From an uncultured Gammaproteobacteria bacterium (GTDB taxonomy: Bacteria > Patescibacteriota > Patescibacteriia > Magasanikbacterales > UBA922): DNA of 64,000 bases. Under the pieces are notes generated by a model. That model was not told the DNA's origin and did not search any database. It worked only from the letters and a program-made list of their open reading frames with translations. Location of the stretch: positions 476,223 to 540,222 of the forward strand of contig OZ246405.1 in the NCBI GenBank assembly GCA_965231005.1. Reading direction: 5' to 3'. Below are positions 32,345-63,128 of the stretch, in pieces. Both the position numbers and the translations under genes were made by a program. Position 1 is the first letter of the stretch. Every line of letters begins with the position of its first letter.

Positions 32345-32480
32345 CCAGAAATCAGGGACTAAGGTCTAATCTAGGAACTGCTAAATAGAACACAGATTTC
32401 CAGGATTTATACAGATTGACACAGATCAGATCTGTGAAAATCCTGGTCAATCATGGTAATCTGTGTCCTATCTAATCTTT
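32345..32480. repeat. Imperfect-palindrome intergenic repeat, copy A (family shared with 37290 and 49993)
   Basis: Arms aatagaacacagatt...ccaggattt and aaatcctgg...aatctgtgtcctatctaat. About 70% similar to the reverse complement of copy C. Confidence 0.5.
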
Positions 32481-32561
32481 CTTAAAAAAATAGTTAGATC
32501 TCTAATTCTTATTTTTTACAATATTGATTTGAATCTCTACATGCCGTATACTAATGATGCT

Positions 32562-34124
32562 ATGAATCAAGAAAAAGACAAAAAAGCACCAGGAGTCCTT
32601 ATGATTTTGGATGGTTTTGGCCTTGCAAATCCAAAAGAAAAAGGCAATGCCATTACACCAAAAACAGCTCCACATATTTTTCAGCTCATGAATGAGTATC
32701 CTCATTCAAAACTTAAAGCACATGGAAAAGCAGTTGGATTATTCCCAAACCAGTCTGGAAATTCTGAAGCTGGTCATTTTAATATTGGTGCAGGAAGAGT
32801 AGTAAAGCAGGATTTACTTATGATAAGTGAAGCCATCAAAGATGGAACATTTTATAAGAACACAGCATTTCAACAAGCACTTGAGCACACCAAAAAATAT
32901 AAGAGTGCTGTACATGTTATGGGATTACTTACTGATGGACAAAGTGCTCATACTCATCCAGATCATCTGTATGCTATGCTCGAATATTTGCGTAGAAAAA
33001 AAGTAAAACAAGTGTATATTCATTTGTTTACAGACGGTCGTGACTCTTCACCACATAGTGCACTTACGTTTTTGAATGATTTGCGCATGTACATGAAGAA
33101 TGGAGAGAAGATTGCTAGTGTCATGGGGCGTTTTTATGCAATGGACAGAGATAAACAATGGGAACGAACTGAAAAAGCCTACAATACACTTGTGCTTGGA
33201 AAAGGAGAAAAAGCAGCAAGTGCTGAAGAGGCTATGACACAGGCATACAATCGTGATGAAACAGATGAATACGTAAGTCCAACAATTATTACTGACAAGA
33301 AAAAGCCAGTTGGTCTTATACAAGAAAACGATACTATTTTCTTTTTTAATGCACGCAGTGATAGGGCAAGACAACTTACAAAAGCATTTGTACAAAAAGA
33401 TTTTCTTGCAAAAAATACGGGTGCGTTTAAGAGAAAAAAATTTCCTAAAAATATTTGTTTTGTTGCCATGACAGATTTTGGTCCAGATCTTGATTCTATT
33501 TTTACAGCATTTCCAAGTCCAGATATTCATAACTCACTTGCAAAAGCAGTTGGGGAGTCTCGAAAACAGTTGTATATTTCAGAAACAGAAAAGTACGCTC
33601 ATATGACATTCTTTTTGAACGGGGGTTTTCCAGAACCAATCAATGGTGAAAAAAGAGAACTTGTTCAGTCAACAGGACATCATAGTTACAAAGATTACCC
33701 ACAAATGTCTTGTAAAAAAATTGCAAACATAATTATTAAATATATAAAAAATGAGGCGTACGATTTCATTGTAGTTAATTTTCCAAATGCAGATATGGTT
33801 GGTCATACCGGTGACTTTAAAGCAACAAAAAAAGCAGTAAAGATTATGGATAAACAGGTTCAAAGGATTGTTTCCGAAGTTCAGAAAAAAAACGGTTTTG
33901 TACTAATAACAGGGGACCATGGCAATGCAGAACAAATGCTCAATACAAAAACAGGTGAAGTCATGACAGAACATACGACAAATCCAGTTCCGTGCATTAT
34001 TGTTTCAGAAGATCTTAAAAAAGTGAAATTACGCTCAGGAAAACTTGCAGACGTCGCACCGACATTGCTCAAAATTATGGGTCTTAAAAAACCGAGCGAT
34101 ATGACTGGACGAGCACTCTACTAG
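32562..34124 (+). CDS. gpmI: 2,3-bisphosphoglycerate-independent phosphoglycerate mutase (iPGM), copy 1
   Basis: ILDGFG, GNSEAGHFNIGAGR and DGRD motifs. The start is ambiguous, with in-frame ATGs at 32463, 32541 and 32562. Confidence 0.85.
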   Translation: MNQEKDKKAPGVLMILDGFGLANPKEKGNAITPKTAPHIFQLMNEYPHSKLKAHGKAVGLFPNQSGNSEAGHFNIGAGRVVKQDLLMISEAIKDGTFYKNTAFQQALEHTKKYKSAVHVMGLLTDGQSAHTHPDHLYAMLEYLRRKKVKQVYIHLFTDGRDSSPHSALTFLNDLRMYMKNGEKIASVMGRFYAMDRDKQWERTEKAYNTLVLGKGEKAASAEEAMTQAYNRDETDEYVSPTIITDKKKPVGLIQENDTIFFFNARSDRARQLTKAFVQKDFLAKNTGAFKRKKFPKNICFVAMTDFGPDLDSIFTAFPSPDIHNSLAKAVGESRKQLYISETEKYAHMTFFLNGGFPEPINGEKRELVQSTGHHSYKDYPQMSCKKIANIIIKYIKNEAYDFIVVNFPNADMVGHTGDFKATKKAVKIMDKQVQRIVSEVQKKNGFVLITGDHGNAEQMLNTKTGEVMTEHTTNPVPCIIVSEDLKKVKLRSGKLADVAPTLLKIMGLKKPSDMTGRALY

Positions 34125-34668: not shown

Positions 34669-36249
34669 ATGGAAAAACGTCCTAAACCACTTGTATTGGC
34701 AGTCCTAGACGGTTTTGGTGTTGCCCCAGACAATGAAGGAAATGCAATCACCAAGGCAAAGACGCCAAGTATAGATAAATTCATAGCAGAATTTCCTGTT
34801 ATGACTGTTCATGCATCTGGAACAGAAGTTGGTTTATCATACGGAGAAATGGGGAATTCAGAAGTGGGGCATCTTAATATTGGAGCTGGACGAATCTACT
34901 ATCAAACATTGCCTCGTATCAATAAGGCAATTCAAGGAGGAGATTTTTTTGAAAATAAAGCACTCCTCAGTGCGATTGAACAAGCAAAAAAGAACAAATC
35001 TGCACTTCATCTTATTGGCCTGGTTAGTCCAGGAAATATTCATGCTGCACAAGATCATTTATTTGCATTGCTTGAATTGTGTAAAAAAGAAAAAATAAAA
35101 AAGGTATTTATTCATGCCTGTCTAGATGGTCGTGATACTGGAGCGCAAACTGCAAAAGATTTTATTGGTTTGTTGCAAGAAAAAATGAAAAAACTTAAAA
35201 TTGGAAAGATTGCAACACTCTCCGGAAGGTACTATGCCATGGATAGAGATAATCGTTGGGACAGAATTGAAAAGGCATACAACGCAATGGCTCTAGGGGT
35301 GTCAGATGAATATGCAAGTGATCCTATCAAAGCAATTGATGAATCATATAAGAAAAAAGTTTTTGATGAAGAATTTGTTCCTACTGTTATTGGAAAAGAA
35401 GGAAGTCCAACAACAACGATTCAACCAAAAGATGCTTGTATTTTTTTCAATTTCCGACCAGATAGAGCCCGTGAACTTACAAAAGCATTTGTCCTTCCTG
35501 CATTTGAAAAGTTTAAACGAACATATTTGAAAGGACTCCATTTTGTCACCATGACAGAGTATGAAAAAGATCTCCCTGTAACCGTTGCATTTCCTCCAGT
35601 AGTTATTACAAACTGTCTTGCAGAGGTCATTAGTAATCAAGGATTAAAACAGTTTCATATTGCTGAGACAGAAAAATACGCACACATTACCTTTTTCCTA
35701 AATGGGACAATTGAAGAACCATTTAAAGGTGAAGAAAGAAAAATTGTTCCTTCGCCAAAGGTTGCTTCCTATGACAAGGCGCCTGAAATGTCTGCACCAC
35801 AAATTACAAAGGAAGTTGTGAAAGCAATTGAATCAGATACCTATGACGTTATTATGCTAAATTATGCAAATGCAGACATGGTAAGTCATACTGGAAATTT
35901 TGCTGCAGCAAAAAAGGGGATAGAAGCAGTAGATAAAGGCCTTGGCGAAATTGCTGACCATGTGCTTGCAAAGGGCGGCGTTATGGTGATTACAGCAGAT
36001 CATGGAAATGGAGAAGAAATGGTCAATTTACAAACAGGAGACAAGGTAAAAGAGCATAGCACAAATATTGTCCCGCTCTTCATCATTAGTAGTGAGTTGA
36101 AAGGACATGCTGGTCCGTCTGGTGATCCACCAAATGGTGATTTGAGTTTATTGAATCCAGTTGGTATGCTTGCAGATGTTGCGCCAACCATATTAAAATT
36201 TTTGAATATTCCAAAACCAGACGAAATGACCGGTCGGGCACTCATGTAA
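34669..36249 (+). CDS. gpmI: iPGM, divergent paralog (copy 2)
   Basis: VLDGFG, GNSEVGHLNIGAGR and LDGRDT motifs. Roughly 40% identical to copy 1. Confidence 0.85.
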   Translation: MEKRPKPLVLAVLDGFGVAPDNEGNAITKAKTPSIDKFIAEFPVMTVHASGTEVGLSYGEMGNSEVGHLNIGAGRIYYQTLPRINKAIQGGDFFENKALLSAIEQAKKNKSALHLIGLVSPGNIHAAQDHLFALLELCKKEKIKKVFIHACLDGRDTGAQTAKDFIGLLQEKMKKLKIGKIATLSGRYYAMDRDNRWDRIEKAYNAMALGVSDEYASDPIKAIDESYKKKVFDEEFVPTVIGKEGSPTTTIQPKDACIFFNFRPDRARELTKAFVLPAFEKFKRTYLKGLHFVTMTEYEKDLPVTVAFPPVVITNCLAEVISNQGLKQFHIAETEKYAHITFFLNGTIEEPFKGEERKIVPSPKVASYDKAPEMSAPQITKEVVKAIESDTYDVIMLNYANADMVSHTGNFAAAKKGIEAVDKGLGEIADHVLAKGGVMVITADHGNGEEMVNLQTGDKVKEHSTNIVPLFIISSELKGHAGPSGDPPNGDLSLLNPVGMLADVAPTILKFLNIPKPDEMTGRALM

Positions 36250-37289: not shown

Positions 37290-37400
37290 ATCTGATAGAA
37301 CACGGATTTAACTGATTGAATAGATCAAAACGGATCTAATTCGTGGAAATCCGTGTTCTATCTATATAAATCCTAGTTGATTTGTAGCTGTTATGTTAAC
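37290..37400. repeat. Imperfect-palindrome intergenic repeat, copy B
   Basis: ATAGAACACGGATTT (37295-37309) and its exact reverse complement AAATCCGTGTTCTAT (37347-37361) flank a nested AGATC...GATCT hairpin. The tail ctatctatataaatcctag matches copy C. Confidence 0.55.
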
Positions 37401-37420
37401 TAATAAAACCAAGATAATTT

Positions 37421-37520
37421 GTTAATTGTTTCAGCCAAAGGCTGATCCGCCTCTGGCGGAAATTGCTGATTGTTTATTATACACATATTTATTCATTTTC
37501 TCTCTCTATTATGGTATAAT
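37421..37520 (+). promoter_or_regulatory. Conserved 56-nt upstream block (TTGTTAATTG motif plus two short hairpins) followed by extended -10 TGGTATAAT (37512-37520)
   Basis: About 89% identical to 50160-50215, which is also followed by TGGTATAAT. The TTG 'start' at 37426 lies inside this block, so I treat that N-terminal extension as non-coding. Confidence 0.5.
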
Positions 37521-49982: not shown

Positions 49983-49992
49983 ATAAAAAAAA

Positions 49993-50150
49993 TGGAACAC
50001 GGATTGAACGGATTAAATGGATACAGAAGGATCAAATCAGTGAAAATCCGTTCAATCTGTGTACTATCTAAATAGATCCTAGAAAACCCCTGATTCCAGG
50101 TTTCTGATTTCTGATCCCTACTTCCTCAATTTTTAGTTCTTTTTTTACCT
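49993..50150. repeat. Imperfect-palindrome intergenic repeat, copy C
   Basis: ggaacacggattgaacgg ... ccgttcaatctgtgtac arms. The tail ctatctaaatagatcctag...cagaaatcag is homologous to copy B and to the reverse complement of copy A. Confidence 0.55.
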
Positions 50151-50159
50151 CCATTTTTT

Positions 50160-50249
50160 GTTAATTGTTTCAGCCAGAGGCTGATCCGCCTTTGGCGGAA
50201 GTTGTTAGTTGTTTTTCCGCTAGGTTTCCACACAATCCTATGGTATAAT
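50160..50249 (+). promoter_or_regulatory. Second copy of the conserved 56-nt block plus extended -10 TGGTATAAT (50241-50249)
   Basis: gttaattgtttcagccagaggctgatccgcctttggcggaagttgttagttgttt matches 37421-37476. Confidence 0.5.
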
Positions 50250-50281: not shown

Positions 50282-53200
50282 ATGATTGAGTTCATAATTA
50301 CACAATTACACCGACTGAAACGGTTGATTTCTTGGTTTATCCCAAGGACAAAGAAGCAGTTCTTCATAACTGCATTTTTCGGTATTCTCAGCCTTGCTGT
50401 GTTTTTTGGTCTTGCCGACGGAGTAAGTGCACAAAATACTGCAGTTAATGTGGGTGCGCAAGGAGTAAACTGGATTATTCGTCTCATGTCAGAGATCTTG
50501 CTTTGGCTTGCAAGAATTTTTATTTCAATGACCGTCTTTGGTTTGAAATTGTTTATTGAAGTAGCAAAATATAATGGATATGTAGATGCTCCAATCGTTA
50601 TTATTGGGTGGACAATGGTTCGAGATATTGCAAACATGTTCTTTGTGGTTGTCATGCTCTTGATTGCCTTTGGAACGATTCTAGGACTTGAGCAATATGA
50701 ATGGAAAAAAACATTGGTCAATTTTATTCTTGCTGCCGTGTTTGTTAATTTCAGTAAATTGATTGCAGGATTAATTATTGATATTGCTCATGTCTTCACT
50801 ATTACATTTTTGAACGCAATTGTTGCAACAGCTGGTGGAAATTTGGTGAACATGTTGCACTTGGATCAGATCCTTCAAATTGTTGGAAATGATTTATCGT
50901 ATGGACAAGATATAGGGTGGGAAGTATTTGGTGGTGCTGTTATGGCCATGACTTTTGCTGGAATTGCCATGATGGCAATTGGTGGATACACGATTGTTAT
51001 GGTTATGCGGTTGGTCTTACTCTGGGTTGCAATTATTCTTTCTCCACTTGCATACATTTTTGCAGTTATTCCACAAACAAAATCATATGCAGACGAATGG
51101 TGGAGTGAATTTGGAAAACACGTGTTAGTTGCACCAGTCATTGTATTCTTTATGTGGCTGGCCTTTTCGGCTCTGGGGCAAGGAAATTTTGCCGGAGCCG
51201 ATCTCAACCTGTCGCTTGAAGGAGAAAAACAAGCAGCCGCTGCTGTTGGTATTCAAGACACTGGTGGTCCAACATCGGTAAGTATTAGTAAAGTTTCCAG
51301 TTGGGAAAACATGGCAAACTTTTTTATTGCAGTTGCCTTTTTGATTGTTGGTCTTGAACGAGTCCAAAAGATTGGTGCTCGTGGTTCTTCATTTGCAGGA
51401 GATGCAGTTGACTTTGGAAAGAAAGCAGCATTATACGGAAGTTTGGTTGGTGCAGGATTGTGGGCAAGTCGTGGTGCAAGAGATTTAGCTACCAAGGGGG
51501 CTGAAGGTGCTGCTGTTGGTACATTGAAACATTTACCTGTTGTTGGTGGAGAGAAAATCAAACGGTATGCAGCAACAGCTGGTCAGGGTATAAGAGGTCT
51601 GTACTATGGAAAAGGTATGGAAGTCACAGAAAAAGGTGAGGAAATTCGAGATGCATTGCAAAAAGATCATGAGACACTAGCAAACCTTAAAGACGGTGGA
51701 GCAGGTTTGAAAAAAGAAATTGCAACACTTGAAAAAGCAAGAGAAAGTGCAGAAGGTGATCAGGCAGCTGAAATTGAAAAGAAACTTGGTGAGAAAAAAT
51801 CTGAACTTGCACAAGTGGCAAGTATGGGAGAAGAACAAAAGCAAGCATTGCAAGAAAAAATTGCAACACAGGAAAAAGAACTTTCCAAAGAAATGGGTGG
51901 AGGATTTATTGGTTGGATGGCTCGAAAAAATATCCAATCACAAAAACGTCTTGGAAAAACAGAAAAGCAGGCAGACGTTCGTCGAGATCTTCTTTGGAAA
52001 CGAACAGGATCACAAGCTGGAGGATACTTTATTGGTCTTGGAAAAATTGGAGATCGTTACAAAGGTGTTGATGCGCAAGATCGTATTGAGCGTGGATGGT
52101 TGGCTGCTGAGTCTATGCGGTCAAAAGCAAAAGATGAAGAATTTGAAAATCTTGGTCGCGGACAGGTTCTTGCAAATGCACGGTATAAGTTTGACGTGAA
52201 TGGATCAAAATTCTTTGGGATGTTTGGAACTACTCCAAAGTATGAATTTTCCAAAGGAACCATGGCAGAACGTATTTCTGAGAGAAAAAATCGTGCAGAA
52301 CGAATTGATAGTACAATACGAAAAATAGAAGGGGAAGCACATCTAAGAATGAGTCTTGGAAAGGTAAAGTTGCAACGTCAGTATAAAGATATAGATGGAG
52401 GTGGAAAACGAGTTGTGAAGCCAGATGGTTCTGTCATGTATGAATTTACAGACGACGATACCATGCGTGCAAAAGCAGAAGCAAAAATGATTGCAGATAC
52501 TGTTAGCGCAGTGGAAGAGAGAGAAATTGAAGAGCATCTTATAGACATGTACCAAGATGGTGATTTGTTGGACAAAGGTGCACAAGATATTGAGCGTGGT
52601 CGATTTAGTGAAGATATGAAAGCTGCACTTGCAAGAGAAGATGAATTGGGCGAAGAGCTTAGTACTATTCAGGCAAGAGAAGTGACTGTAGAAGGTGTTG
52701 ATGGTCCTACTTCTGTAGCTAATTTAATTGAACTAGAAAAAACAGCACGAAAAGCACAAGTAGATGCACAAGTTGCTGCAAAAAATAAAAAGAGTGAACT
52801 TACAAAAAATGCTGCAGATAGACTCATTCAAAGAGATGCAGATTTGAAGGAAATTATAAAACAAGGAAATGATGACAAGAAAAAAAGAGCTGAAATTGAA
52901 AAGAAAGACAAACGAACAAAATCAGATAAAGCATGGTTGCAGACACCTGCTGCTGCTTCAAATCCAGATAGGGTGACTCAGATTGAAGATAAAGATAATA
53001 GAACAGAAGAAGAAATAGCTTGGCTTGCTGCTAACACGGTTCAGGAAATAGAAGATCGTATTACAGCAGCAAAGACCGAGCTCGAAGCTATTGATACAGA
53101 TGAAAAGAAAAAGGAGTTGATCAAAGCTGAAGTAGAAGCAGATAATGAACTTACTGCTTTAAATACAGATGTTACTGACAAGAAAGACGCTGCGCGTGAA

Positions 53201-55288
53201 CAATCAAGAATCAGACGTGCAGCAGAAGAAGTGCTTAAAGAGGAAACTGCAGGAGAGTATGACACAGCAAAGCAAAAATTAAAGAACCATGAAAAAGAAA
53301 TGAATGAATTGCGTGAAAAGTTAAAAGAACAAGGTGAAATGGTTCGACTAGGTGATACAAAGACCATTCAGGAAATTATTGATACACTTACAAGTTCTCT
53401 TACTGGAAAGTCAGAAGCAGCTCAAGTAGATATTCAAAAAGATATTAAAGCATGGCAAAAGTTGTTAAAAGGTGCAAGCTCTGGAAGTCTTGCATGGCGC
53501 TATGGTGCACAAAAAGGATTGCAAAAAGACAGAAAAGATGGATACACATATCAACACAATTATCTTTTGAGTGAAGCAGAGCAGCGTGTTGTGCATGATG
53601 AACGTGGACTTGATACACCAAAAAGTACACTTACAGAATTGATTGAACAATATACAAAGAGCTTTTCAGAAATGTCTATTGAAAGTTTTGTTGCAAATGC
53701 AGGAGACATGCTTGTGAAAATGCTTGACAAACAAGAAAAAGAGACATTGACCAGTCAAGACAAGGCAGTGATGATGGGATTGTTTAAACGTGGATTTGAC
53801 CGTGCATGGATTGATGATGCAATTTATGCTATTACTGGGAACAAAGAAGCGAATAGGTTGATTGGTGAAAAACTTGGTTGGGACGATGATGAATATGTTG
53901 ATGACAAGATTCGAGATATCCAAATGCTTTTGGCTAGTGGGGTGGATGTTGACTTTGTTCGTAACAATGGTGTTATTTCACAAATTAAAGATGTGGCAGA
54001 AATGGACTTTAAGTTGAATATGAAACAGATGGAAAAAGGATTGACAACAGGAAAATTTGTAGACAAAGCAGGAAAAGATATTACAAAAGCTATTCATGAT
54101 AAAGTTCTTTCATTTATGAAAGACAATGACATGAAATTCAATGTTGACCAGGAAATGATGTTTGCCGACTTTTTTTCTGGAGTAGAAGAGGCACAAACAA
54201 AGGCAAGGGAACGTATAGACAAACGCCTTGCAAATATGGGTGAATTAGGAAAAAGTGAAGAATTTATTGCTGAGGTAACAAAAAGGCATAATGCATGGAG
54301 CAGCCGCACAGATAATGCGAGTGCAGCAGCAGCAGTTCGAGAATCTACATATAAGGGTTGGATTCGAAAACATATGGAAAGCCAATCAGAAATGCAGTTC
54401 TTGGGTAACTTGCGTCCCGATGCACTAAAAGTTGGACATGCAGAAAATGCTGGGTGGGCACTCAGTAGTAAAATGGCAGATGGAAGTAATTTATATTTAG
54501 GAACAGGTATGCGTCGTGCACGTCGGCATGTGATGGGAGATGCGCTCAAGATGAGAGCAACAGACAGAACATCTTTCCAAACGCATAGTTATGCAAACTT
54601 AACAGAAAGTCAGTGGGGACAAATGATTACAAGTTTGCGTTTAGATGATTATCTTGCAATTCGTGGAAATACAACAGATCCAAATACATTTCGTAACACA
54701 AATGCGCGTGATCGGTTGCTTCGTGCTGGTTTGAGTAGTATTGATAAAGTAGATGATTATACAGACGAGAATAATACATTTGAGGTTGCCATGCTTCGAC
54801 ATAAAAAAGGTGCGAAAAAAGGACAACTAACAAATTTGGCCCAAAACTGGGCAGTAAAATATAAACAATGGACAGGAAATAATTTTGATGAACTTTCAGA
54901 CGACATGAAGCAAGCATTTATTGTGCAACAAACAATGCAAAAGAATTTTGGAAAGCAAATGAGTGGAAATATTAAAGATTTCTTAATGACACTTTCAGAA
55001 ATGGGTGGAGTAGACATGCTTGAAGCATTTCAACAAGGAAAAATGAATATACGAATGTACAATCCAGCAAAAGGAGAAATGGTAAAATACGACAATGTTC
55101 AAAAATTGATTGAACATTATAATAATGGTGATTTCCATGGCAAGGTAAACCATGAGACACAAGATTACGAAAAAGTTTCTGGACAAATTGCTGATCGTAT
55201 TTCCAAATTTATTCCGAAAAAAGCAGGAAAGGGCGGAGATGATGCATCTGATCGATTAGCAATGGGTCTAGATGATGATGCCGCATAA
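50282..55288 (+). CDS. Giant (1668 aa) polytopic membrane protein, VirB6/TrbL-like N-terminal domain plus about 1200-aa charged coiled-coil/globular extension
   Basis: Signal-like N-terminus, then 6 or more TM helices (for example MFFVVVMLLIAFGTILGL and VMVMRLVLLWVAIILSPLAYIFAVIP). A long E/K-rich region follows. The gene lies next to VirB3/VirB4-like genes. Confidence 0.5.
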   Translation: MIEFIITQLHRLKRLISWFIPRTKKQFFITAFFGILSLAVFFGLADGVSAQNTAVNVGAQGVNWIIRLMSEILLWLARIFISMTVFGLKLFIEVAKYNGYVDAPIVIIGWTMVRDIANMFFVVVMLLIAFGTILGLEQYEWKKTLVNFILAAVFVNFSKLIAGLIIDIAHVFTITFLNAIVATAGGNLVNMLHLDQILQIVGNDLSYGQDIGWEVFGGAVMAMTFAGIAMMAIGGYTIVMVMRLVLLWVAIILSPLAYIFAVIPQTKSYADEWWSEFGKHVLVAPVIVFFMWLAFSALGQGNFAGADLNLSLEGEKQAAAAVGIQDTGGPTSVSISKVSSWENMANFFIAVAFLIVGLERVQKIGARGSSFAGDAVDFGKKAALYGSLVGAGLWASRGARDLATKGAEGAAVGTLKHLPVVGGEKIKRYAATAGQGIRGLYYGKGMEVTEKGEEIRDALQKDHETLANLKDGGAGLKKEIATLEKARESAEGDQAAEIEKKLGEKKSELAQVASMGEEQKQALQEKIATQEKELSKEMGGGFIGWMARKNIQSQKRLGKTEKQADVRRDLLWKRTGSQAGGYFIGLGKIGDRYKGVDAQDRIERGWLAAESMRSKAKDEEFENLGRGQVLANARYKFDVNGSKFFGMFGTTPKYEFSKGTMAERISERKNRAERIDSTIRKIEGEAHLRMSLGKVKLQRQYKDIDGGGKRVVKPDGSVMYEFTDDDTMRAKAEAKMIADTVSAVEEREIEEHLIDMYQDGDLLDKGAQDIERGRFSEDMKAALAREDELGEELSTIQAREVTVEGVDGPTSVANLIELEKTARKAQVDAQVAAKNKKSELTKNAADRLIQRDADLKEIIKQGNDDKKKRAEIEKKDKRTKSDKAWLQTPAAASNPDRVTQIEDKDNRTEEEIAWLAANTVQEIEDRITAAKTELEAIDTDEKKKELIKAEVEADNELTALNTDVTDKKDAAREQSRIRRAAEEVLKEETAGEYDTAKQKLKNHEKEMNELREKLKEQGEMVRLGDTKTIQEIIDTLTSSLTGKSEAAQVDIQKDIKAWQKLLKGASSGSLAWRYGAQKGLQKDRKDGYTYQHNYLLSEAEQRVVHDERGLDTPKSTLTELIEQYTKSFSEMSIESFVANAGDMLVKMLDKQEKETLTSQDKAVMMGLFKRGFDRAWIDDAIYAITGNKEANRLIGEKLGWDDDEYVDDKIRDIQMLLASGVDVDFVRNNGVISQIKDVAEMDFKLNMKQMEKGLTTGKFVDKAGKDITKAIHDKVLSFMKDNDMKFNVDQEMMFADFFSGVEEAQTKARERIDKRLANMGELGKSEEFIAEVTKRHNAWSSRTDNASAAAAVRESTYKGWIRKHMESQSEMQFLGNLRPDALKVGHAENAGWALSSKMADGSNLYLGTGMRRARRHVMGDALKMRATDRTSFQTHSYANLTESQWGQMITSLRLDDYLAIRGNTTDPNTFRNTNARDRLLRAGLSSIDKVDDYTDENNTFEVAMLRHKKGAKKGQLTNLAQNWAVKYKQWTGNNFDELSDDMKQAFIVQQTMQKNFGKQMSGNIKDFLMTLSEMGGVDMLEAFQQGKMNIRMYNPAKGEMVKYDNVQKLIEHYNNGDFHGKVNHETQDYEKVSGQIADRISKFIPKKAGKGGDDASDRLAMGLDDDAA

Positions 55289-55466
55289 TTTATTATCTAA
55301 AATCTATTATTTATAATCTAATATATGGAATTGTTAATATCCTGCTCAGTATAATGATATTAAAAGGTTATATGGCTATATTGCTACTCTATCCTACGCA
55401 ACTAACAATTTAGCAATAAAGCAATATAACAATATATTAGATAGTAGATATTAAATATTAGTCAGT

Positions 55467-56642
55467 ATGATGGATCTTAGCGTAATGATAATACAATTAT
55501 ATGCAGAAAAAACTCCTGAAGAGATTGAGAAGTTGTTAGCATTGGTTGAAACAAAATCAACAGAATATTATGCACATACATGGCAAGATGTCACAGTTGA
55601 ACTCTTAGCAGATCAAGAAGTGCAATTAAATCTTATTAGAACTCTGTATCAGTCTTCTTTTTCTTATTCTGGTGTTGTAGATGAAATTCTTCGTTCGTTA
55701 GATGAATGGTCAGAACGAACATTAATTTTTGAACATCTTTCCTCAAATGATAATATTTTTTATCGAAGATTTTATACATTTTTAGGATTTTTGAATTTTG
55801 CAGATATTGAATTTAAGCGAAAAATGAGATTGCTTGATTCAGAATTGCTTGTACTGGCATGCCATTGGGATATTCCTATATATGTAAATGTTCAGTCACA
55901 CTTTGCAGAATTTGCACAAATAAATGCACTCAAAAAAGAAGCGCTTCTTTTTGCAAATGCTATTGCTGCAAATCAAACAGAGCTAGGTGAAGAAAGAAAA
56001 GAATTAAAAACAATTGCGCAGTGGGTAAAAGCATTTGACGAGCATGAAGGTGCTACGTTTGAAGAGCGAGTAGACACATTTTTATCTGAACAGTTTGAGG
56101 CAACACGTTTGTCAGAAGCAGACTCAAATATTTTAGGGAAAATTCTTTCATTGTACTGGAGTTTAAAAGGATCTTTTATTTGGCAAGAAATTGTTAACAG
56201 CCATACTGCTGGTTATGAGCAAGTAGAAAAGAAAAATGTTCGTTCGGTTGATGATCATTATATTCAGTTATTATACGAAGGAACAGAACAAGACATTGTG
56301 GAATGGTTGCAAGATTATGAAGAAACAGTTCATTGGATAGATCTAACTGGAAAGTCAGAAGCATTTGTAAAGAAAATCTTGTTTGTGCTATCAGAAAAAG
56401 TTGATTTACAAAATCAGCAGCAGGTAGAACTTGTTATTAAATTTATTAATAAGTTAAAAGAACGAGGACTCGAGCTTATTGATGAAGTACTGTACTTTGA
56501 TGAAGAAGATCATTCGTTCCACTGGGATGAAGAACTTATTTTTGCAGAGAGCGAGGAAGAAACCCCAGCTTCCTCTGAAGGTGCAGATGATAATAAGGAA
56601 TCAGATGAGTTAAAGAAACTAAAAGATTCATTCGCACAATAA
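55467..56642 (+). CDS. Acidic cytoplasmic hypothetical protein (391 aa)
   Basis: ORF only; no motifs recognised. Confidence 0.5.
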   Translation: MMDLSVMIIQLYAEKTPEEIEKLLALVETKSTEYYAHTWQDVTVELLADQEVQLNLIRTLYQSSFSYSGVVDEILRSLDEWSERTLIFEHLSSNDNIFYRRFYTFLGFLNFADIEFKRKMRLLDSELLVLACHWDIPIYVNVQSHFAEFAQINALKKEALLFANAIAANQTELGEERKELKTIAQWVKAFDEHEGATFEERVDTFLSEQFEATRLSEADSNILGKILSLYWSLKGSFIWQEIVNSHTAGYEQVEKKNVRSVDDHYIQLLYEGTEQDIVEWLQDYEETVHWIDLTGKSEAFVKKILFVLSEKVDLQNQQQVELVIKFINKLKERGLELIDEVLYFDEEDHSFHWDEELIFAESEEETPASSEGADDNKESDELKKLKDSFAQ

Positions 56643-56644
56643 TA

Positions 56645-56786
56645 ACTAACAATTAACAAAAAACAATTAACAAGTTTTCTTGGTTCTTTATGCGAATATA
56701 TCTCGTGTGAATTTTCAAAAGAACATTTAGACGCTCACCGCACCTAAATAGTTTGTTAATTGTTAATTGCTAGTTGTTAATTGCTA
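56645..56786. repeat. About 145-bp MITE-like element with TTGTTAATTG-type terminal inverted repeats, copy D
   Basis: Its reverse complement is about 90% identical to 62281-62421 over roughly 140 bp, as judged by manual alignment. Confidence 0.6.
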
Positions 56787-56790
56787 AGAT

Positions 56791-58314
56791 ATGGCAAAGA
56801 AAACTCCACAACAAAATGATCAGCCAAGTGCACAACGTCCACCATCTGGTGCGCCGGTTATTCGAATTAAAAAAGCAGACGGAAGTATTGCGACTGTTCC
56901 ATTGGATCAGTTTAAAAAACAATATACTGATTCTTCAAAACAGGCACCTACTACAAGTCCATCAGCCACTCCTGCCTCACCGGCAGGCAGGCCTTCTCCA
57001 TCGGCAGCTGAATCAACTCCACCGGCAGCTCCTGCCTACGCCAAGGTTTCGGCAGGTAAACCAGCCTCACCGGCAGGCAGGCCTGCAGTTGCTGTTCCAC
57101 CACCATTGCAACGGGTAAAAAATAAATTGAAACTTAATTTTTCATCTTCATCTAAAAAGAGTGTTGCTCCTACGCCTCCAGATGTTGAAAAAGAATCACC
57201 AAAAGAAATACCAACGCCAGAAAAAAAGGTTGTTCCTCCAGCTCCTATGCCTGCGAAAGAAAAGGTTTCAAAAGAGTTGCCAAAAAAGATTGAAACACCT
57301 CAAGCTGTTCCAGCACAAGAAGATGAATTTCTTTCTTTTGAAGGACAAGTTCCGCCTCCACCTCCTGTTCGCATGACAAAAGAAAAGGTAGAACGTTCTC
57401 CTACAGATATGCTTGCAGAAACAGCAACGCATGCACTATCTACAACAACTCCTGTTGCACATGCCTTTGTTGATGCTGCTGCAGCAAAAGCATGGGACAA
57501 AGAAGATCATAGTTCTCCTTTGGAAATGTCTATGCACGAGCACGAGGAAGTTCCAGATCATCTTCCAGCACTGCCTGAACAACACGACGAAGTATTAGAT
57601 GAAGTATTGCATTCTCTTTCTTTTCAGATTAGTGAAGAGCTTCATAGCCGTGTAAAATCACTTATTCAGTCGCGGTTAAAAGAAATTAGAACTGATGATC
57701 AGATAATTGCCTATGGAGTTAGACCTGCACAGCAGGGTGGTCTTGGATTAAAACAAGAAGAAGCAAAGATACTTCTCGATGCAATATTGAACGCATTGCA
57801 CCTTCCTCATCAGAAACGAAAAAAAGAAGAAAAAAGAAAACAGGTAAAATCATCTATACCTATTGCGCCACCGATACAAACATCTCAAAAAGCTCCAGTT
57901 GCAAATGTTGCACCACGTCCGCGTGCAGTTCCTTTGAAAAGTACAGGTAAACCAATGGTACATGATGTGCAACATCCAGAACCTGTTACTCATATGCAAA
58001 CAGTCGGACCCATTGATGAACTTCGTATGTTTTCATTAGAAGATTTACGACGTCTTGGGACTACTCCAGATGCGATGTATCAAAAATTATTAGAGAAATT
58101 TACTATTTTGCAAAAAGAATCATATTTACTGTATATCGATGCTGTACAAGCATGGTATCACAGTCCGTTGTATCGTTTGTATCAGTCGCTTTTGCAACAA
58201 GCAATTAACAATGAAAAACCAATGAAAGATATTATTCAGTCACAGGGAAAGGGAAGCATCACAATGGATGAATTTTTACATATTGCAGAACTAGGAAAAA
58301 ATATTAGTTATTAA
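56791..58314 (+). CDS. Pro/Ala/Ser-rich protein (507 aa) with globular C-terminal domain
   Basis: ASPAGRP tandem motif, PPPPP runs and a KRKKEEKRK stretch. Confidence 0.55.
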   Translation: MAKKTPQQNDQPSAQRPPSGAPVIRIKKADGSIATVPLDQFKKQYTDSSKQAPTTSPSATPASPAGRPSPSAAESTPPAAPAYAKVSAGKPASPAGRPAVAVPPPLQRVKNKLKLNFSSSSKKSVAPTPPDVEKESPKEIPTPEKKVVPPAPMPAKEKVSKELPKKIETPQAVPAQEDEFLSFEGQVPPPPPVRMTKEKVERSPTDMLAETATHALSTTTPVAHAFVDAAAAKAWDKEDHSSPLEMSMHEHEEVPDHLPALPEQHDEVLDEVLHSLSFQISEELHSRVKSLIQSRLKEIRTDDQIIAYGVRPAQQGGLGLKQEEAKILLDAILNALHLPHQKRKKEEKRKQVKSSIPIAPPIQTSQKAPVANVAPRPRAVPLKSTGKPMVHDVQHPEPVTHMQTVGPIDELRMFSLEDLRRLGTTPDAMYQKLLEKFTILQKESYLLYIDAVQAWYHSPLYRLYQSLLQQAINNEKPMKDIIQSQGKGSITMDEFLHIAELGKNISY

Positions 58315-58447
58315 CTATTAGTTACTAGTTAATAGACAAGAAAAGAATTTTATTGTAAATCATGTCAAAGCAAGTGGAATCATATTGGTAGTAAATATTG
58401 ATGGATTCTAATAGCTAATAACTAGTAACTACTAACTAGTAAAAGGT

Positions 58448-58918
58448 ATGCAACAATTTGTTGTTCCACAATTTATTGATGTTGAAGATAAAATTTTTGG
58501 TCCAATTACCACAAGACAATTTTTAATTTTGCTCGTTGGGAGTTTAATTATTTTTGTTGGATACAGACTTGCAGATTTTACATTATTTATTTTTATTGTG
58601 GCTATTATTGGGGGTCTTTCACTAATATTTGCGTTTGTAAAAATAAATGGACAAGATTTTCATTATTTTTTGTTAAATATTTTTCAGACAATGCGGCGTC
58701 CTGGACTTCGAGTATGGAGAAAAGCATATACAAAAGACGAATTAAATTTTTTGCGCAAACGTGACATGGAAATAGAGGTAGTCGAGGTACAAACAAGAAA
58801 GAAAGCAAAGCAATCACATATTCGAGATCTTTCATTAATTGTAAACACTGGTGGATATTATCGACCACTCGATGGAATTACACCCCAAGAAAAAACAACA
58901 CTCCCTCCACTTCATTAG
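58448..58918 (+). CDS. PrgI/VirB3-like small membrane protein
   Basis: The N-terminus FIDVEDKIFGPITTRQFLILLVGSLIIF followed by a second TM helix resembles the PrgI/TcpE family. It sits immediately upstream of VirB4. Confidence 0.5.
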   Translation: MQQFVVPQFIDVEDKIFGPITTRQFLILLVGSLIIFVGYRLADFTLFIFIVAIIGGLSLIFAFVKINGQDFHYFLLNIFQTMRRPGLRVWRKAYTKDELNFLRKRDMEIEVVEVQTRKKAKQSHIRDLSLIVNTGGYYRPLDGITPQEKTTLPPLH

Positions 58919-58976
58919 TTTGGGAGTTGTGTTCATGGTATAATGAATTAACAAAAGATTAATATCTGTTCTGATT

Positions 58977-59687
58977 ATGGCAAAGGAAAAGAAACAAAAA
59001 AAAGGACAAACAAAAAAGAAAAAGAAAAAACCAAGTCGTCCATCTACACAGACATATTTGCCGATTGCAGAAATTCGAGACGGTGTTTTAGTGTTGAAAG
59101 ATGGAACACTCCGAAAAGTAATGCTTACATCGAGTATTAATTTTGCCCTAAAGTCTGAAGATGAACAAAACGCACTTATTTCTTCGTATGTTGGCTTTTT
59201 AAATTCCTTAGATTTTCCATTGCAGATTGTTATTCAGTCTCGCAAATTACAGACGCGACCGTATTTAGACAAATTGGTTGCTGCAGAAAAAGAGCAACAA
59301 AATGAGTTGCTTCGAGTGCAGATTGCAGATTACAGGGCATTTATTGAAGAACTCGTTGAGATTGGTCAAATTATGACAAAGCGTTTTTATGTTGTTGTAT
59401 CATATGATCCTGCATCAAATAAGAAAAAAGGATTTTTTACACGCATGAAAGAAGTTATAAAACCAGCATCTGCCATTCGTTTAAAACAATCACGATTTAA
59501 TCAACGAAAAGAAGATTTGGATTTACGCGTCCGACAAGTTTCTGGTGGATTGCAAAGTATTGGTTTGCAAGTTGTTGAACTAGACACACAAGCATTGATT
59601 GAATTATTTTATTCAACCTATAATCCAGATATTTCTTTTGATCAGGGATTAGGAAAAATAGAAGATCTCAGAGTTGAGAATCTCTAA
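58977..59687 (+). CDS. VirB4/TraC N-terminal domain encoded as a separate ORF
   Basis: LPIAEIRDGVLVLKDGTLRKVMLTSSINFALKSEDEQNALISSYVGFLNSL is the typical VirB4 N-domain. A stop falls at 59685-59687, and the next ORF begins 13 nt later in the +1 frame. Confidence 0.6.
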   Translation: MAKEKKQKKGQTKKKKKKPSRPSTQTYLPIAEIRDGVLVLKDGTLRKVMLTSSINFALKSEDEQNALISSYVGFLNSLDFPLQIVIQSRKLQTRPYLDKLVAAEKEQQNELLRVQIADYRAFIEELVEIGQIMTKRFYVVVSYDPASNKKKGFFTRMKEVIKPASAIRLKQSRFNQRKEDLDLRVRQVSGGLQSIGLQVVELDTQALIELFYSTYNPDISFDQGLGKIEDLRVENL

Positions 59688-59700
59688 TATTACGTAGTGT

Positions 59701-61575
59701 ATGCCATTTAAGCCAGAATCCGCAGGAGCGGGCAGACAACGTTCCGGAAAACTGCAGAAGAAGCAGGGAAAGGAACAAGAATTGAAAAAAGAATTGATTT
59801 CGATTGAAGAAGAACGAACCTACCGAGAGGGAACTGTTGCTATCCGTGACTTGATCGCTCCATCTACATTTCGTGTTGAATCAAACTTTATCCAGCTTGG
59901 TGATGTTTTTTTGCGCACCATTTTTGTTATTAGTTATCCACGGTATATTTCTGTTGGATGGAGTTCTCCACTCCTCAACTTAAATATGACAATGGATGTT
60001 TCAATGTTTTTCTATCCTGTTCCATCGCCAATTATTTTAAAACAATTAAAAAAGAAGGTTGGAGCACTGCAAGCACAGCTCAGTGCAGATGCAGAAAAAG
60101 GTGCGCCACGAGATCCAATTCGTGAAACGGCTCTTCGTGACATTGAACAGCTTCGTGACGATCTTACCCAAGGAATTGAACATTTTTTCCAATTTGGATT
60201 TTATGTCACTATTTATGCAAAAGAAAAAGAACAGCTCGAGCAAATAAGTGAAGATATTGAAAATATTTTTGGTTCAAAACTTATTTATACAAAAAATGTT
60301 TTGTTCCAGGCTGAACAAGGATTTACATCAACACTGCCACTTGGAATAGATGAACTTATGGTTGGATTTAATATGAATTCTTCACCAATTGCATCATCGT
60401 TTCCATTTATGTCTTCAGAACTTACCAGTGACGATGGTATTTTGTATGGAGTAAATAGACATAATAATAGTTTGATATTATTTGATAGATTTACCATGCA
60501 AAATGCAAATATGGTTGTGTTTGCTACATCTGGTGCTGGTAAATCATACGCAGTGAAACTCGAAGTGCTTCGAAGTCTGATGCTTGGAACAGAAGTGATT
60601 ATTATTGATCCAGAAATGGAATATGTGCACCTTACAGAAGCGGTTGGTGGAACATTTGTGAATATTTCTCTTGCATCTGAAAGTAAAGTAAACCCATTTG
60701 ACTTGCCACGACCAGTTGGTCAGCAGATTTCAACAGAAGATGTTATTCGTAGTGCAGTTATTACAGTAAAAGGAATGCTTCGGATTATGTTTGGCAAGAT
60801 TACACCGCAAGAAGATTCTATTTTGGATCGTGCACTCCTTGAAACATATGCAAAAAAAGATATTACACCAGCAAGTGATTTGGCAACAGTTGAATCTCCA
60901 ATTATGCAAGACTTGCTTGATGTGCTCGAAGGAATGGATGGTGCAAGTACCCTTGCATTAAAATTGAGAAAATATACAGAAGGGACATTTGCAGGATTGT
61001 TCAATGCACCAACAAATGTGAATATGGATAATCAATTGGTTGTATTTAGTGTGCGTGATCTAGAAGATGAGTTACGTCCAATGGCAATTTACTCTCTGAT
61101 TAGTTATATTTGGAATATTGTCCGAAGTGAACGAAAAAAACGTATTCTCATTATTGATGAGGCGTGGTGGCTTATGACGCACGAAGATAGTGCAAAGTTT
61201 GTCTATGCACTTGTAAAACGATGCAGAAAATATTATCTTGGAATTACAACAATTACACAAGATGTTAATGACTTTTTGCGATCTCAGTATGGTCAGGCAA
61301 TTGTGACAAATTCATCCATGCAGTTGCTGTTGAAACAATCTCCATCTGCCATTGAAACAATTCAAAAAACATTCCTTTTAACCGAAGGAGAAAAATTCTT
61401 ACTTCTTGAAAGTGCTGTTGGAGAAGGAATTTTCTTTGCGGGATTGAAACATGCAGCGATTAAAGTTGTTGCATCGTACACAGAAGACCAACTTATTACG
61501 TCAGATCCACAGCAACTTCTTGAAATAGAAAAAGCAAAAGCAGAATATGAAGCAGAGATTGCAGGACGGGGGTAA
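59701..61575 (+). CDS. virB4: VirB4/TraC/PrgJ-like type IV secretion ATPase (central and C-terminal domains)
   Basis: Walker A SGAGKSY and Walker B LIIDEAWW are present. The conserved segment GDVFLRTIFVISYPRYISVGW is also found. Confidence 0.85.
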   Translation: MPFKPESAGAGRQRSGKLQKKQGKEQELKKELISIEEERTYREGTVAIRDLIAPSTFRVESNFIQLGDVFLRTIFVISYPRYISVGWSSPLLNLNMTMDVSMFFYPVPSPIILKQLKKKVGALQAQLSADAEKGAPRDPIRETALRDIEQLRDDLTQGIEHFFQFGFYVTIYAKEKEQLEQISEDIENIFGSKLIYTKNVLFQAEQGFTSTLPLGIDELMVGFNMNSSPIASSFPFMSSELTSDDGILYGVNRHNNSLILFDRFTMQNANMVVFATSGAGKSYAVKLEVLRSLMLGTEVIIIDPEMEYVHLTEAVGGTFVNISLASESKVNPFDLPRPVGQQISTEDVIRSAVITVKGMLRIMFGKITPQEDSILDRALLETYAKKDITPASDLATVESPIMQDLLDVLEGMDGASTLALKLRKYTEGTFAGLFNAPTNVNMDNQLVVFSVRDLEDELRPMAIYSLISYIWNIVRSERKKRILIIDEAWWLMTHEDSAKFVYALVKRCRKYYLGITTITQDVNDFLRSQYGQAIVTNSSMQLLLKQSPSAIETIQKTFLLTEGEKFLLLESAVGEGIFFAGLKHAAIKVVASYTEDQLITSDPQQLLEIEKAKAEYEAEIAGRG

Positions 61576-61694
61576 TAGTTATTAGTTACTAGCTATTAGT
61601 TATTAGGTCATAGATAATCTGACTTACAATTACTAGATGAACGTACCAAGATTTTTAGTAACTATTAACTAATAACTATTAACTAGTAGAGAAT

Positions 61695-62276
61695 ATGTTA
61701 GATATTCGAAAAAGACTTTTCATCATTTTAGGTCTTGGAGCAGGGCTGATTCTTGTTGTTATTTTGATAATTATGTTTGCTTCAAAGTCTCCTGATGGGG
61801 AAAAAGATATTACAGTAGACACGTTTGTTCCTCAGCAAGTCATCAATACAGATTCAGATGATGCAAAAAGTGATGTGATTGTTCCACCAGACGTTACCAG
61901 TCCTTCTGTTGTGGAAGATGAAAATGAATTATACGCACGGCAAACTGCACGACTTTTTGTTGAAAGATTTTTAAGTTATTCAAATCAAAATAGTAATAAA
62001 CATATTGAAGACGTTCTTCCACTTGCAACAGCGCGGATGAAGCAGTGGATTGCTTCACAAGAAGTGGACGAAGGCACTGCATATGAAGGTGTAACAACAA
62101 AAGTTATTGCAAGTAGTATAAAATCAATTAGTAGTAACCAAGCAATAGTAAATTTTGGTGTGCAGCAAACAATTCAAACAATTACAAAAAAAGATATTAA
62201 GACTCGTGATGGACAACTTTACTTACTAAGGTCTGGCAGTGACTGGAAGGTAGATGGGTTGTTCTGGGATCGGTAA
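61695..62276 (+). CDS. Bitopic membrane protein (N-terminal TM plus about 165-aa extracytoplasmic domain); possible VirB8-like
   Basis: Topology and size only; no motif match. Confidence 0.35.
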   Translation: MLDIRKRLFIILGLGAGLILVVILIIMFASKSPDGEKDITVDTFVPQQVINTDSDDAKSDVIVPPDVTSPSVVEDENELYARQTARLFVERFLSYSNQNSNKHIEDVLPLATARMKQWIASQEVDEGTAYEGVTTKVIASSIKSISSNQAIVNFGVQQTIQTITKKDIKTRDGQLYLLRSGSDWKVDGLFWDR

Positions 62277-62280
62277 AAAA

Positions 62281-62421
62281 ACAATTAACAACTAACAATT
62301 AACAAACTATTTGGGTGCGGTAAGCCTCTGAATGTTCTTTTGAAGATTTACACGAACTGGATTCGTATAAAGAACCAAGAAAACTTGTTAATTGTTTTTT
62401 GTTAATTGCTAATTGTTTTAT
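62281..62421. repeat. MITE-like element, copy E (inverted relative to copy D)
   Basis: acaattaacaactaacaattaacaaac ... cttgttaattgttttttgttaattgctaattg terminal inverted repeats. The core matches the reverse complement of copy D. Confidence 0.6.
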
Positions 62422-62423
62422 AT

Positions 62424-63128
62424 ATGAAGGGGGGAATAAAAAGAATTTTTGAATTGTTGAAAGATTATATCTTTCCGCTATTTTGTCTGGGTTGTAAAAA
62501 AGAAGGAATGTGGGTGTGCAAAGATTGTTTGAATCAGATTGAAACTGTTGGGATATTTCAGTGTCCTGTTTGTGAAAAAGAAAATAAGAATGGACGATGT
62601 TGTGATAATTGTAAAACATCGTCTTTTTTGTTTTGGCATATTGCTGCGGGAAAATATAATGAAGATGAATTATTGGGAAAAATTATTTATCAACTTAAAT
62701 ATCAGTACGTCGAAGAAATGGGGGAGTATGTTTCTTTTTTTATAGAATCTTTTTTAGAAGCAAGAAAAAAAGATTTTTCTTCATTTGATTATATTATCCC
62801 AGTTCCATTGCATAAACGGCGTTTTGCAGAAAGGGGATTTAATCAAGCTGAACTGATTGCAAAGATATTTTCAGAACAAACAAACGTCCCTATTCTTGAT
62901 TGCTTAAAACGACAACGATATACAAAACAGCAAGCACGATTGGATCGTGATAAACGTCAAAAAAATCTTGATAATGCATTTTTGCTTCATTCTCTTGAAC
63001 TAAAAAACAAAAAAATCATCCTTGTAGATGATGTGTTTACAACAGGGAGCACAATGCAAAGTTGTGCAAGGGTTTTAAAAGATGCTGGAGCAGGGGAGGT
63101 TGTTGGATTCACCTTAGCAAGAGGGTAA
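62424..63128 (+). CDS. comFC: ComF-family phosphoribosyltransferase with N-terminal double zinc-ribbon
   Basis: CLGC..C..C, CPVC and CCDNC cysteine pairs, plus the PRTase motif IILVDDVFTTGST. I chose ATG 62424; the longer ORF from TTG 62406 would extend into the repeat. Confidence 0.8.
   Translation: MKGGIKRIFELLKDYIFPLFCLGCKKEGMWVCKDCLNQIETVGIFQCPVCEKENKNGRCCDNCKTSSFLFWHIAAGKYNEDELLGKIIYQLKYQYVEEMGEYVSFFIESFLEARKKDFSSFDYIIPVPLHKRRFAERGFNQAELIAKIFSEQTNVPILDCLKRQRYTKQQARLDRDKRQKNLDNAFLLHSLELKNKKIILVDDVFTTGSTMQSCARVLKDAGAGEVVGFTLARG

Follow-up and report, generated by a model that had tools for sequence, protein, structure and literature searches.

Correia/NEMIS in Neisseria, ERIC/IRU in enterobacteria, RUP/BOX in pneumococcus and RPE in Rickettsia are transcribed palindromic repeats. 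They are non-coding units of 100-160 nt with terminal inverted repeats that lie in either orientation between operon genes, where they are co-transcribed as long hairpins and can be cut by RNase III or E, resulting in altered mRNA stability. A second group of intergenic repeats is built from tandem heptamers, among them the cyanobacterial STRR heptamers CCCCAGT, TTGGTCA and CAACAGT. According to Mrazek et al. (2007), as quoted in PMC4679880 and PMC4692102, no other long simple-sequence repeats are as over-represented between bacterial genes as heptamers. The GGGAATC repeats of Xanthomonas form 70-75 inverted array pairs per genome that are able to form stem-loops (PMC4692102), and arrays of TAACTGA lie directly upstream of start codons that have no Shine-Dalgarno sequence in marine Beggiatoaceae, cyanobacteria and Bacteroidetes (PMC4679880). 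In the cip-cel operon of Clostridium cellulolyticum, intergenic stem-loops are described as sites of selective RNA processing and stabilisation (PMC4423207, PMC10311766) and are proposed to set subunit stoichiometry. We analysed two repeats, named copies D and E, in a 64-kb stretch of DNA (contig OZ246405.1; 'the window' denotes this whole stretch) from Candidatus Magasanikbacteria. D and E are probably oppositely oriented copies of a single palindromic, non-coding repeat of ~140 nt, lying within the tiny junctions of a conserved operon that encodes a type IV secretion system (T4SS) and ComF. Their design is best read as that of an element resembling miniature inverted-repeat transposable elements (MITEs), repetitive extragenic palindromes (REPs) or Correia repeats, with arms made of heptamer simple-sequence repeats.

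An earlier note on this DNA had described an inverted pair of repeats at 56645-56786 and 62281-62421. The pair is real, and these positions were right to within a few bases. A repeat search of the window returned inverted arms at 56641-56778 and 62280-62417 (138 nt, 88% complementary) with 5501 nt between them, and blastn aligned D and E with 89% identity over 129 nt. When D was aligned by MAFFT with the reverse complement of E, both the arms and the core aligned and the longest exact block was 42 nt; a direct alignment of D with E was confined to the ends. The parts of the two copies are as follows.

56641 to 56786, + strand: copy D, which fills the 148-nt gap from the g391 stop codon (56640-56642) to the g507 ATG (56791).
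About 56640 to 56673: left arm of D, (TTAACAA)n.
56674 to 56752: core of D, two small hairpins with a T/A-run in between.
56753 to 56786: right arm of D, (TTGTTAA)n, five units.
62278 to 62421, − strand: copy E, the unit of D in the opposite orientation, which fills the 147-nt gap from the g193 stop codon (62274-62276) to the ComF ATG (62424).
62278 to 62305 and 62385 to 62419: arms of E.
62306 to 62384: core of E.

The unit thus has a 79-nt core between inverted arms, and the only reading frames that overlap it are spurious. Within each copy the terminal arms are 27-35 nt long and 80-86% complementary, and they consist of tandem 7-nt units with the consensus TTGTTAA, four to five per arm. The right arm of D is composed of the units TTGTTAA, TTGTTAA, TTGCTAG, TTGTTAA and TTGCTAA, and the corresponding arm of E has one unit less. 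The window contains 12 exact sites of the 10-mer TTGTTAATTG, whereas shuffling predicts 0.65 and none of 100 shuffles reached this count. Nine of these sites fall within D or E, two (37419 and 50158) are intergenic, and one (58202) lies inside g507. The description of the repeats as MITE-like, with terminal inverted repeats TTGTTAATTG/CAATTAACAA, holds. The two arms of one copy differ, and the A-rich arm (CAATTAACAAAAAACAATTAACAAG, which contains AAAAAA) adjoins the GTTTTCTTGG end of the core in D and E alike. Because the A-rich arm keeps this partner in both copies, the entire unit, and not the core alone, is inverted between the two sites. The only matches of the window to Rfam 15 at the gathering score were tRNAs, and relaxing the threshold to E<=1 across 55200-62500 gave a single spurious lncRNA match.

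The genes around the two copies form one series.

55467 to 63128, + strand: conserved co-directional series g391, g507, PrgI, VirB4N (TraC-like), VirB4, g193 and ComF, with g1668 (50282-55288) upstream.

Pfam searches assigned 58448-58918 to PrgI, 58977-59687 to a TraC-like protein, 59701-61575 to a VirB4/TraG P-loop ATPase and 62424-63128 to a ComF-like protein (Pribosyltran and a double zinc ribbon). The protein g507 contains 12% proline, and g193 has a single hydrophobic segment at its N-terminus. Pfam and composition thus confirmed the gene content reported between D and E, namely a Pro-rich protein, a PrgI-like protein, both VirB4 open reading frames (ORFs) and a bitopic protein. VirB4 is 100% identical to a protein encoded by a 1.23-Mb genome record and by two ENA metagenome contigs, and hundreds of its homologues with 80-88% identity are labelled Candidatus Magasanikbacteria or Patescibacteria. 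A chromosomal, relaxase-less T4SS is known from Patescibacteria, and in the class ABY1 its cluster adjoins comF (2025 survey, PMC12102498); the cluster in the window is this system.

We compared the window proteins by tblastn with 62 related loci taken from genomes in GTDB. Wherever the genes are present (~60 loci, from Magasanikbacteria to Uhrbacteria and Buchananbacteria), they have the order g1668-(g391)-g507-PrgI-VirB4N-VirB4-g193-ComF on one strand. The sequence of D and E was absent from all of these loci by blastn and nhmmer, and none of them showed an inverted arrangement of the genes. In the closest relatives with sequence compared (L006 and L068-L071, VirB4 86% identical), the two orthologous junctions measure 6 and 2 nt and read ...ELDKLKGSFAS* AAAAAT MPAPKK... 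and ...DGLFLDD* CT MKIRRG..., where the window has ...ELKKLKDSFAQ* [148 nt] MAKKTP... and ...DGLFWDR* [147 nt] MKGGIK.... Since the orthologous junctions are this short, D and E are insertions; each occupies the whole space between a stop and the next start, with the protein ends on either side unaltered. All operon junctions of the closest relatives span 1-18 nt, those of an 88%-identical relative 1-59 nt (as read from gene calls, not DNA), and the median spacer per junction across the relatives is 6-36 nt. The window spacers are, in operon order, 178, 148, 133, 58, 13, 119 and 147 nt, so that five junctions carry 119-178 nt.

The same comparison bears on the suggestion that D and E mark the ends of a composite mobile unit carrying T4SS-like genes. 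Inverted repeats around a gene block of conjugation-type ancestry would suit such a unit, but synteny extends over the block and the flanking DNA on either side in all relatives, which lack the repeats. Moreover, the GC content across the block (0.34-0.40) is similar to that of the surroundings, the cluster is a chromosomal one without a relaxase, and an arrangement of D, block and E was found in no entry of the plasmid and phage collections. D and E cannot be the insertion sequence arms of a composite transposon because they measure 145 nt and hold no ORF. This suggestion is left without support, and we regard it as scarcely credible.

The earlier note had also raised a switch resembling phase variation, in which D and E would recombine, inverting 56790-62280 and turning the T4SS genes off or on. 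Inverted repeats of 138 nt with 88% identity and a 42-nt exact block would suffice for occasional RecA-dependent exchange. However, Pfam searches of ~40 ORFs of the window detected no family of recombinases (site-specific tyrosine or serine), integrases or transposases, the ~60 relatives share gene order and strand in loci that have no repeats, and after flipping, conserved core genes would run antisense to their flanks with no outward promoter. An invertible segment is expected to carry a promoter or alternative gene ends; this one holds five conserved core genes co-oriented with the flanks, and its lone promoter-like box faces inward, downstream.

58936 to 58944, + strand: TGGTATAAT extended -10 box in the spacer between PrgI and VirB4N, the sole canonical promoter-like box in the block.

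Flipping would also leave unexplained the similar hairpins at three other junctions (see below). Finally, the 1.23-Mb genome record and two ENA metagenome contigs, which match the window over 14 kb with 0 or 1 mismatch, show one single orientation; this is weak evidence, because all of these records come from one project. Homologous recombination by RecA across the exact block of 42 nt might still invert the segment on rare occasions. We found no support for the switch and consider it highly improbable. If it were true, an epibiotic bacterium of the candidate phyla radiation (CPR) would be phase-varying an essential T4SS, which the evidence does not bear out.

Three further junctions of the operon carry hairpins.

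55297 to 55461: hairpin at the g1668/g391 junction (178-nt spacer), 30-nt arms of CTAWWAT/ATAKTAG heptamers, a family distinct from D/E.
58302 to 58442: hairpin at the g507/PrgI junction (133-nt spacer), arms of TTAGTTA/CTAGTAA heptamers, termed family 2.
61571 to 61695: hairpin at the VirB4/g193 junction (119-nt spacer), family-2 arms (TTAGTTA/TAACTAT), with a core unrelated to that of 58302-58442.

Overall, the units of the family-2 arms are TTAGTTA/TAACTAG, and such arms were also seen outside the operon at L001:21767-21848, a clpP-DHH junction, and at L074:8922-9061. Elements of this family have arms that are 90-97% identical and cores that are unrelated. All five long spacers of the operon reach a lag-7 autocorrelation of 0.81-0.86 in their best 28-nt window, and their arms have the properties of heptamer simple-sequence repeats, that is, at least two to three tandem 7-nt units in intergenic positions near ORF boundaries. 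Hairpin elements hence occupy five of the seven operon junctions. As D and E are two of five such junction-filling hairpins, their pairing is incidental to a wider colonisation of junctions. D sits inside the conserved cluster and not at its boundary, and the segment from D to E is the middle of the longer cluster from g1668 to ComF. The importance attached to the bracketing of a 5.6-kb block is therefore not upheld, and the bracketing of five genes by D and E probably has no function of its own.

We then examined 1.07 Mb of CPR loci with a detector that requires three units of at least 80% periodicity and a reverse-complement partner within 200 nt. It returned 25 elements at period 7 and 3, 2, 7 and 1 at periods 5, 6, 8 and 9, respectively, showing that arm periodicity is specific to 7 nt. 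The heptamers vary by genome and include, among others, TAGCTAG, ATTACGA, CAGCTTC, TCGTATC, TTCCAAA and GTCGTGA. Most elements span the gap from stop to start between co-directional genes; in most cases the left arm begins -9 to +19 nt from the stop codon and the right arm ends 2-16 nt ahead of the ATG. We also compared 59 expanded junction spacers of the relatives (60-260 nt) with shuffled spacers. At least 18 base pairs between the first and last 35 nt were present in 34% of the real spacers and 7% of the shuffled ones, and the mean folding energy was -37 kcal/mol as against -22 kcal/mol. Period 7 was the most frequent top periodicity (25/62 spacers). Presence on the VirB4 tree is patchy, with none in the nearest neighbours of the window; the sister genomes L042, L043, L047, L048 and L063 carry hairpins of unrelated heptamers at one shared junction, VirB4N/VirB4. 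In the relatives, element density was ~3-fold higher within the operon span than in the flanks (12 vs 8 elements, p=0.01). On balance, these results favour the view that the unit of D and E is a member of a larger class with a patchy distribution, in which hairpins with tandem-repeat arms span whole spacers between genes in relatives among the Magasanikbacteria and Uhrbacteria.

Between L026 and L028, orthologous hairpins at gene junctions show 82-89% identity and the four-fold sites of VirB4 70%; the higher conservation of the hairpins points to constraint or concerted evolution. These two loci, as well as L027 and L033, hold another hairpin family, with ~45-nt arms of ATACTAAT-type units of 8-9 nt, present at two to three junctions per genome among PrgI/VirB4N, VirB4N/VirB4, VirB4/g193 and g193/ComF; L028 additionally has a single arm of the ATACTAAT type with a terminator. 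The occurrences of TTGTTAATTG itself in L007, L026 and L028 were rejected as elements, being coding (the QNTINKTQ motif of g507 homologues). Provision of stop codons in all frames was dropped as a reason for heptamer arms because the heptamers of several relatives (CAGCTTC, GCGAAAT) contain no stop codon.

Each of the five window spacers was predicted to fold into one hairpin of -28 to -42 kcal/mol, with outer pairs within ~12 nt of the stop codon and the ATG. D and E accounted for -36 to -42 kcal/mol, with z-scores against shuffles of -5.95 for D and -4.6 to -7.3 for E. D and E differ at five positions in the core hairpin stems, where four changes preserve the pair by G-U/A-U exchange, and at six in the loops; with two sequences as the basis, this pattern hints at structural constraint. 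A Shine-Dalgarno-like duplex was found upstream of ~5 of 43 window ORFs and of none of the genes downstream of the five spacers, and the source appears to be a low-Shine-Dalgarno organism. The same operon genes of the relatives touch or overlap one another, as is typical of translationally coupled genes. If D and E are co-transcribed with the operon, as we infer, each would form a long AU-rich mRNA hairpin with its base near the upstream stop and the downstream start. The stem would hide the initiation region of a downstream gene devoid of a Shine-Dalgarno sequence until it was opened by a ribosome that terminates at its base, so that downstream translation would depend on upstream translation (coupling by unmasking). 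The ~30-bp AU-rich stem could also be a point of RNase III cleavage, stability control, processing or weak termination, and might in this way tune subunit ratios.

A far-reaching form of this idea would make junction hairpins with 7-nt-repeat arms a selected, lineage-wide architecture of ABY1 Patescibacteria that spreads or regenerates without a transposase (for example, by slippage and template switching) and acts at the RNA level, either preserving or gating translational coupling in low-Shine-Dalgarno operons or setting the ratios of T4SS subunits. We put this forward tentatively and think it rather doubtful.

The small hairpins of the core allow a different role, that of a transcription insulator. 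The core would then be a bidirectional intrinsic terminator (hairpin 1 followed by TTTTC and, on the other strand, hairpin 2 followed by TTCTTTTG), and D and E would cut the ancestral operon into separate transcription units. A terminator-like site was indeed called at 56750-56724 on the − strand, the G-U pairs in each core hairpin form only on the strand with the following T-run, and the orientation of E sets the better hairpin and TTCTTTTG directly after g193. However, the stems have little stability (-6.4 to -9.3 kcal/mol) and the T-runs are short and interrupted, D and E contain no downstream promoter-like box to restart g507, PrgI and ComF, and the cores of the sister elements are unrelated and without terminator features. 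We judge this role unlikely.

Equally unlikely, in our estimate, are operator or protein-binding arrays, in which TTGTTAATTG/TTGTTAA would be bound by a DNA- or RNA-binding regulator of giant surface-protein genes, g507 and ComF, with D and E as duplicated regulatory modules. The enrichment of the 10-mer (12 vs 0.65) fits such arrays, as does its restriction, apart from the coding site at 58202, to four intergenic sites (37-62 kb), each upstream of a + strand gene. Two of these sites lie outside D and E.

37392 to 37431, − strand: degenerate partial third copy, comprising an arm and the first ~15 nt of the core (78% identity over 40 nt to D 56661-56700; nhmmer E=0.016), with one exact TTGTTAATTG at 37419-37428.
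50158 to 50167, + strand: lone TTGTTAATTG inside a duplicated promoter-upstream module at 49992-50214, homologous to 37295-37475.

The sites at 37419 and 50158 lie in the duplicated module ~85-90 nt upstream of TGGTATAAT -10 boxes, and the TAACTGA arrays of Beggiatoaceae have been proposed as binding sites of a post-transcriptional regulator (PMC4679880). Against this, unrelated heptamers appear in a like architecture at other operon junctions and in relatives, and this sharing of architecture by unrelated heptamers favours a structural rather than a sequence-specific role. No regulator gene was identified, and D and E contain no TGnTATAAT or TTGACA box. Since the core lies in opposite orientations in D and E, a signal in it that depends on direction could not act for both of the genes downstream. 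A sigma-70 promoter scan gave no site in D or E and a regional count at the level of shuffles, and the IHF consensus WATCAANNNNTTR was absent from all five spacers on both strands. The proposal that the repeats are duplicated promoter or operator modules drew no positive support.

Besides the box at 58936, TGGTATAAT occurs at 30081, 37512 and 50241 (+ strand) and at 38795 (− strand, inside the giant ORF), giving five occurrences where 0.45 are expected. A second palindrome family, ATAGAACACGGATT...AATCCGTGTTCTAT, was seen at 32382-32474, 37295-37360 and 49992-50067, upstream of the + strand genes for cofactor-independent phosphoglycerate mutase (iPGM), g230 (followed by a giant ORF of 3051 aa) and g1668. 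Two of its copies belong to the ~180-nt duplicated module (37295-37475 ~ 49992-50214), together with one TTGTTAATTG and two GC-rich hairpins, directly upstream of TGGTATAAT extended -10 boxes; the module is a candidate shared regulatory module for giant surface-protein genes. There are two paralogous iPGM genes (32541-34124 and 34669-36249), ~0.5 kb apart in a glycolysis cluster with GAPDH, PGK and enolase, a redundancy unusual for a 1.2-Mb genome.

Two resemblances of the core to motifs of other bacteria were set aside. TACGAAT, from the match of TGCGAATA/TACGAAT to the streptococcal competence cin-box, is enriched only 2.8-fold in the intergenic DNA of the related loci, far below tRNA and promoter words, and for the 8/9 match to the Haemophilus uptake sequence AAGTGCGGT the chance expectation is at roughly the 5% level. 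In these loci, the strongest intergenic enrichment is that of words from the tRNA T-loop, of CTTGACA (-35-like) and of TATACTA/TAGTATA (-10-like).

Several observations weigh against an inserted, Correia-like repeat that acts through its RNA. No more than two complete copies and a partial one turned up in ~81 kb of a 1.23-Mb genome (the window, L001 and L074), and mobility rests on the two copies because the family was seen nowhere else. Searches with 22-mers and 20-mers of the core gave 0 matches in a genome-contig collection from which the source genome is absent, and two chance matches inside unrelated coding sequence in metagenome contigs; blastn gave one 35-nt low-complexity match in the plasmid collection and none in the phage collection. 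The flanks (TAATAAC / AGATATG for D, CGGTAAA / ATATATG for E) show no direct repeat beyond TA, which is uninformative in AT-rich DNA, and the heptamer register blurs the element ends. No transposase family was among the Pfam matches of the ~40 window ORFs. At the RNA level, co-transcription, the hairpin in vivo and any effect on translation are all putative, and the weak terminator-like hairpins of the core (-6 to -9 kcal/mol) could instead split the operon. The fit of the arms to stop and start is predicted equally well by the survivorship of selfish palindromes where they are harmless, at junctions otherwise of 1-20 nt. A test of stop/start juxtaposition based on the widest base pair was no better than shuffles (14/59 vs 16/59); the end-to-end pair count given above, which does exceed shuffles, was adopted in its place.

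Three matches to a gapped terminal-repeat pattern in viral contigs have the 13-nt inverted repeat and unrelated cores, and were judged coincidental. AT-rich viral sequences from IMG/VR (L003:11701-11791, L004:9745-9850 and L005:7864-7954) carry the end motif of D and E as a 13-nt inverted repeat, AACAATTAACAAG...CTTGTTAATTGTT, around cores of 65-80 nt that are unrelated to those of D and E. Elsewhere in the window (9347-9419 and 9465-9524), a segment made up of the 3' end of a tRNA gene and ~20 nt beyond it (9381-9440) recurs after 84 nt (60 nt, 90% identical), which may be an integration or excision scar. The − strand ORF 4383-4958 contains a coding tandem repeat with a period of ~93 nt (4410-4877), and L074, an ENA contig from another sample, diverges from the window from 4647 onward. 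This looks like variation in repeat copy number between samples, the indel being deduced and not aligned.

Taken together, palindromic repeats have colonised five of seven junctions of a highly conserved operon in a reduced genome of 1.2 Mb and left the protein ends untouched. In relatives some elements are more conserved than synonymous sites, and a heptamer design is shared by unrelated sequences. The locus is a case for asking how hairpins, whether selfish or structural, and translational coupling are reconciled in largely Shine-Dalgarno-less organisms, and why 7-nt units dominate bacterial intergenic repeats. For annotation, it cautions that large inverted repeats around CPR gene blocks need not mean mobile or invertible DNA. 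If the lineage-wide architecture were real, reduced genomes would punctuate their operons post-transcriptionally by a class of element that is new.

We found no paper describing heptamer-armed, junction-filling repeats in Patescibacteria, and the arm heptamers seen here (TTGTTAA; TTAGTTA/TAACTAG) match none of the described families compared, namely TAACTGA, GGGAATC and the cyanobacterial STRR. The GGGAATC arrays of Xanthomonas (PMC4692102) resemble D and E in being tandem 7-nt units (typically ~4 copies) that are overwhelmingly intergenic, mostly between co-directional ORFs and near the end of the upstream ORF, and resemble the wider class in varying in length and sequence between close relatives. 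The Xanthomonas heptamer, however, is G-rich and quadruplex-prone and its host has a large proteobacterial genome, whereas the units here are AT-rich (TTGTTAA or TTAGTTA), and the Xanthomonas arrays, unlike D and E, are not described as filling gaps from stop to start or as sharing a 79-nt core. TAACTGA arrays (PMC4679880) share with the present elements stop codons within the heptamers, a position a few nucleotides before starts without a Shine-Dalgarno sequence, and low-Shine-Dalgarno hosts; the family-2 unit (TAACTAG/TAACTAT) is one to two bases from TAACTGA. Nearly all TAACTGA arrays are direct (one 'indirect' in 170) and are not predicted to fold, whereas the arrays here are inverted pairs around a core. 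Compared with repeats of the Correia/ERIC type, D and E have no sequence similarity, no IHF site and no recognisable TA duplication; their arms are tandem heptamer arrays, and family 2 conserves the arms only, not the core. The stem-loops of the cip-cel operon are, like D and E, stable hairpins (here predicted) at operon junctions between subunits of a multiprotein machine, but they are single-copy evolved structures, whereas D and E are repeated elements known here from sequence. D and E thus combine known traits, with heptamer arrays serving as the inverted arms of a repeated, junction-filling unit, and constitute no new category.

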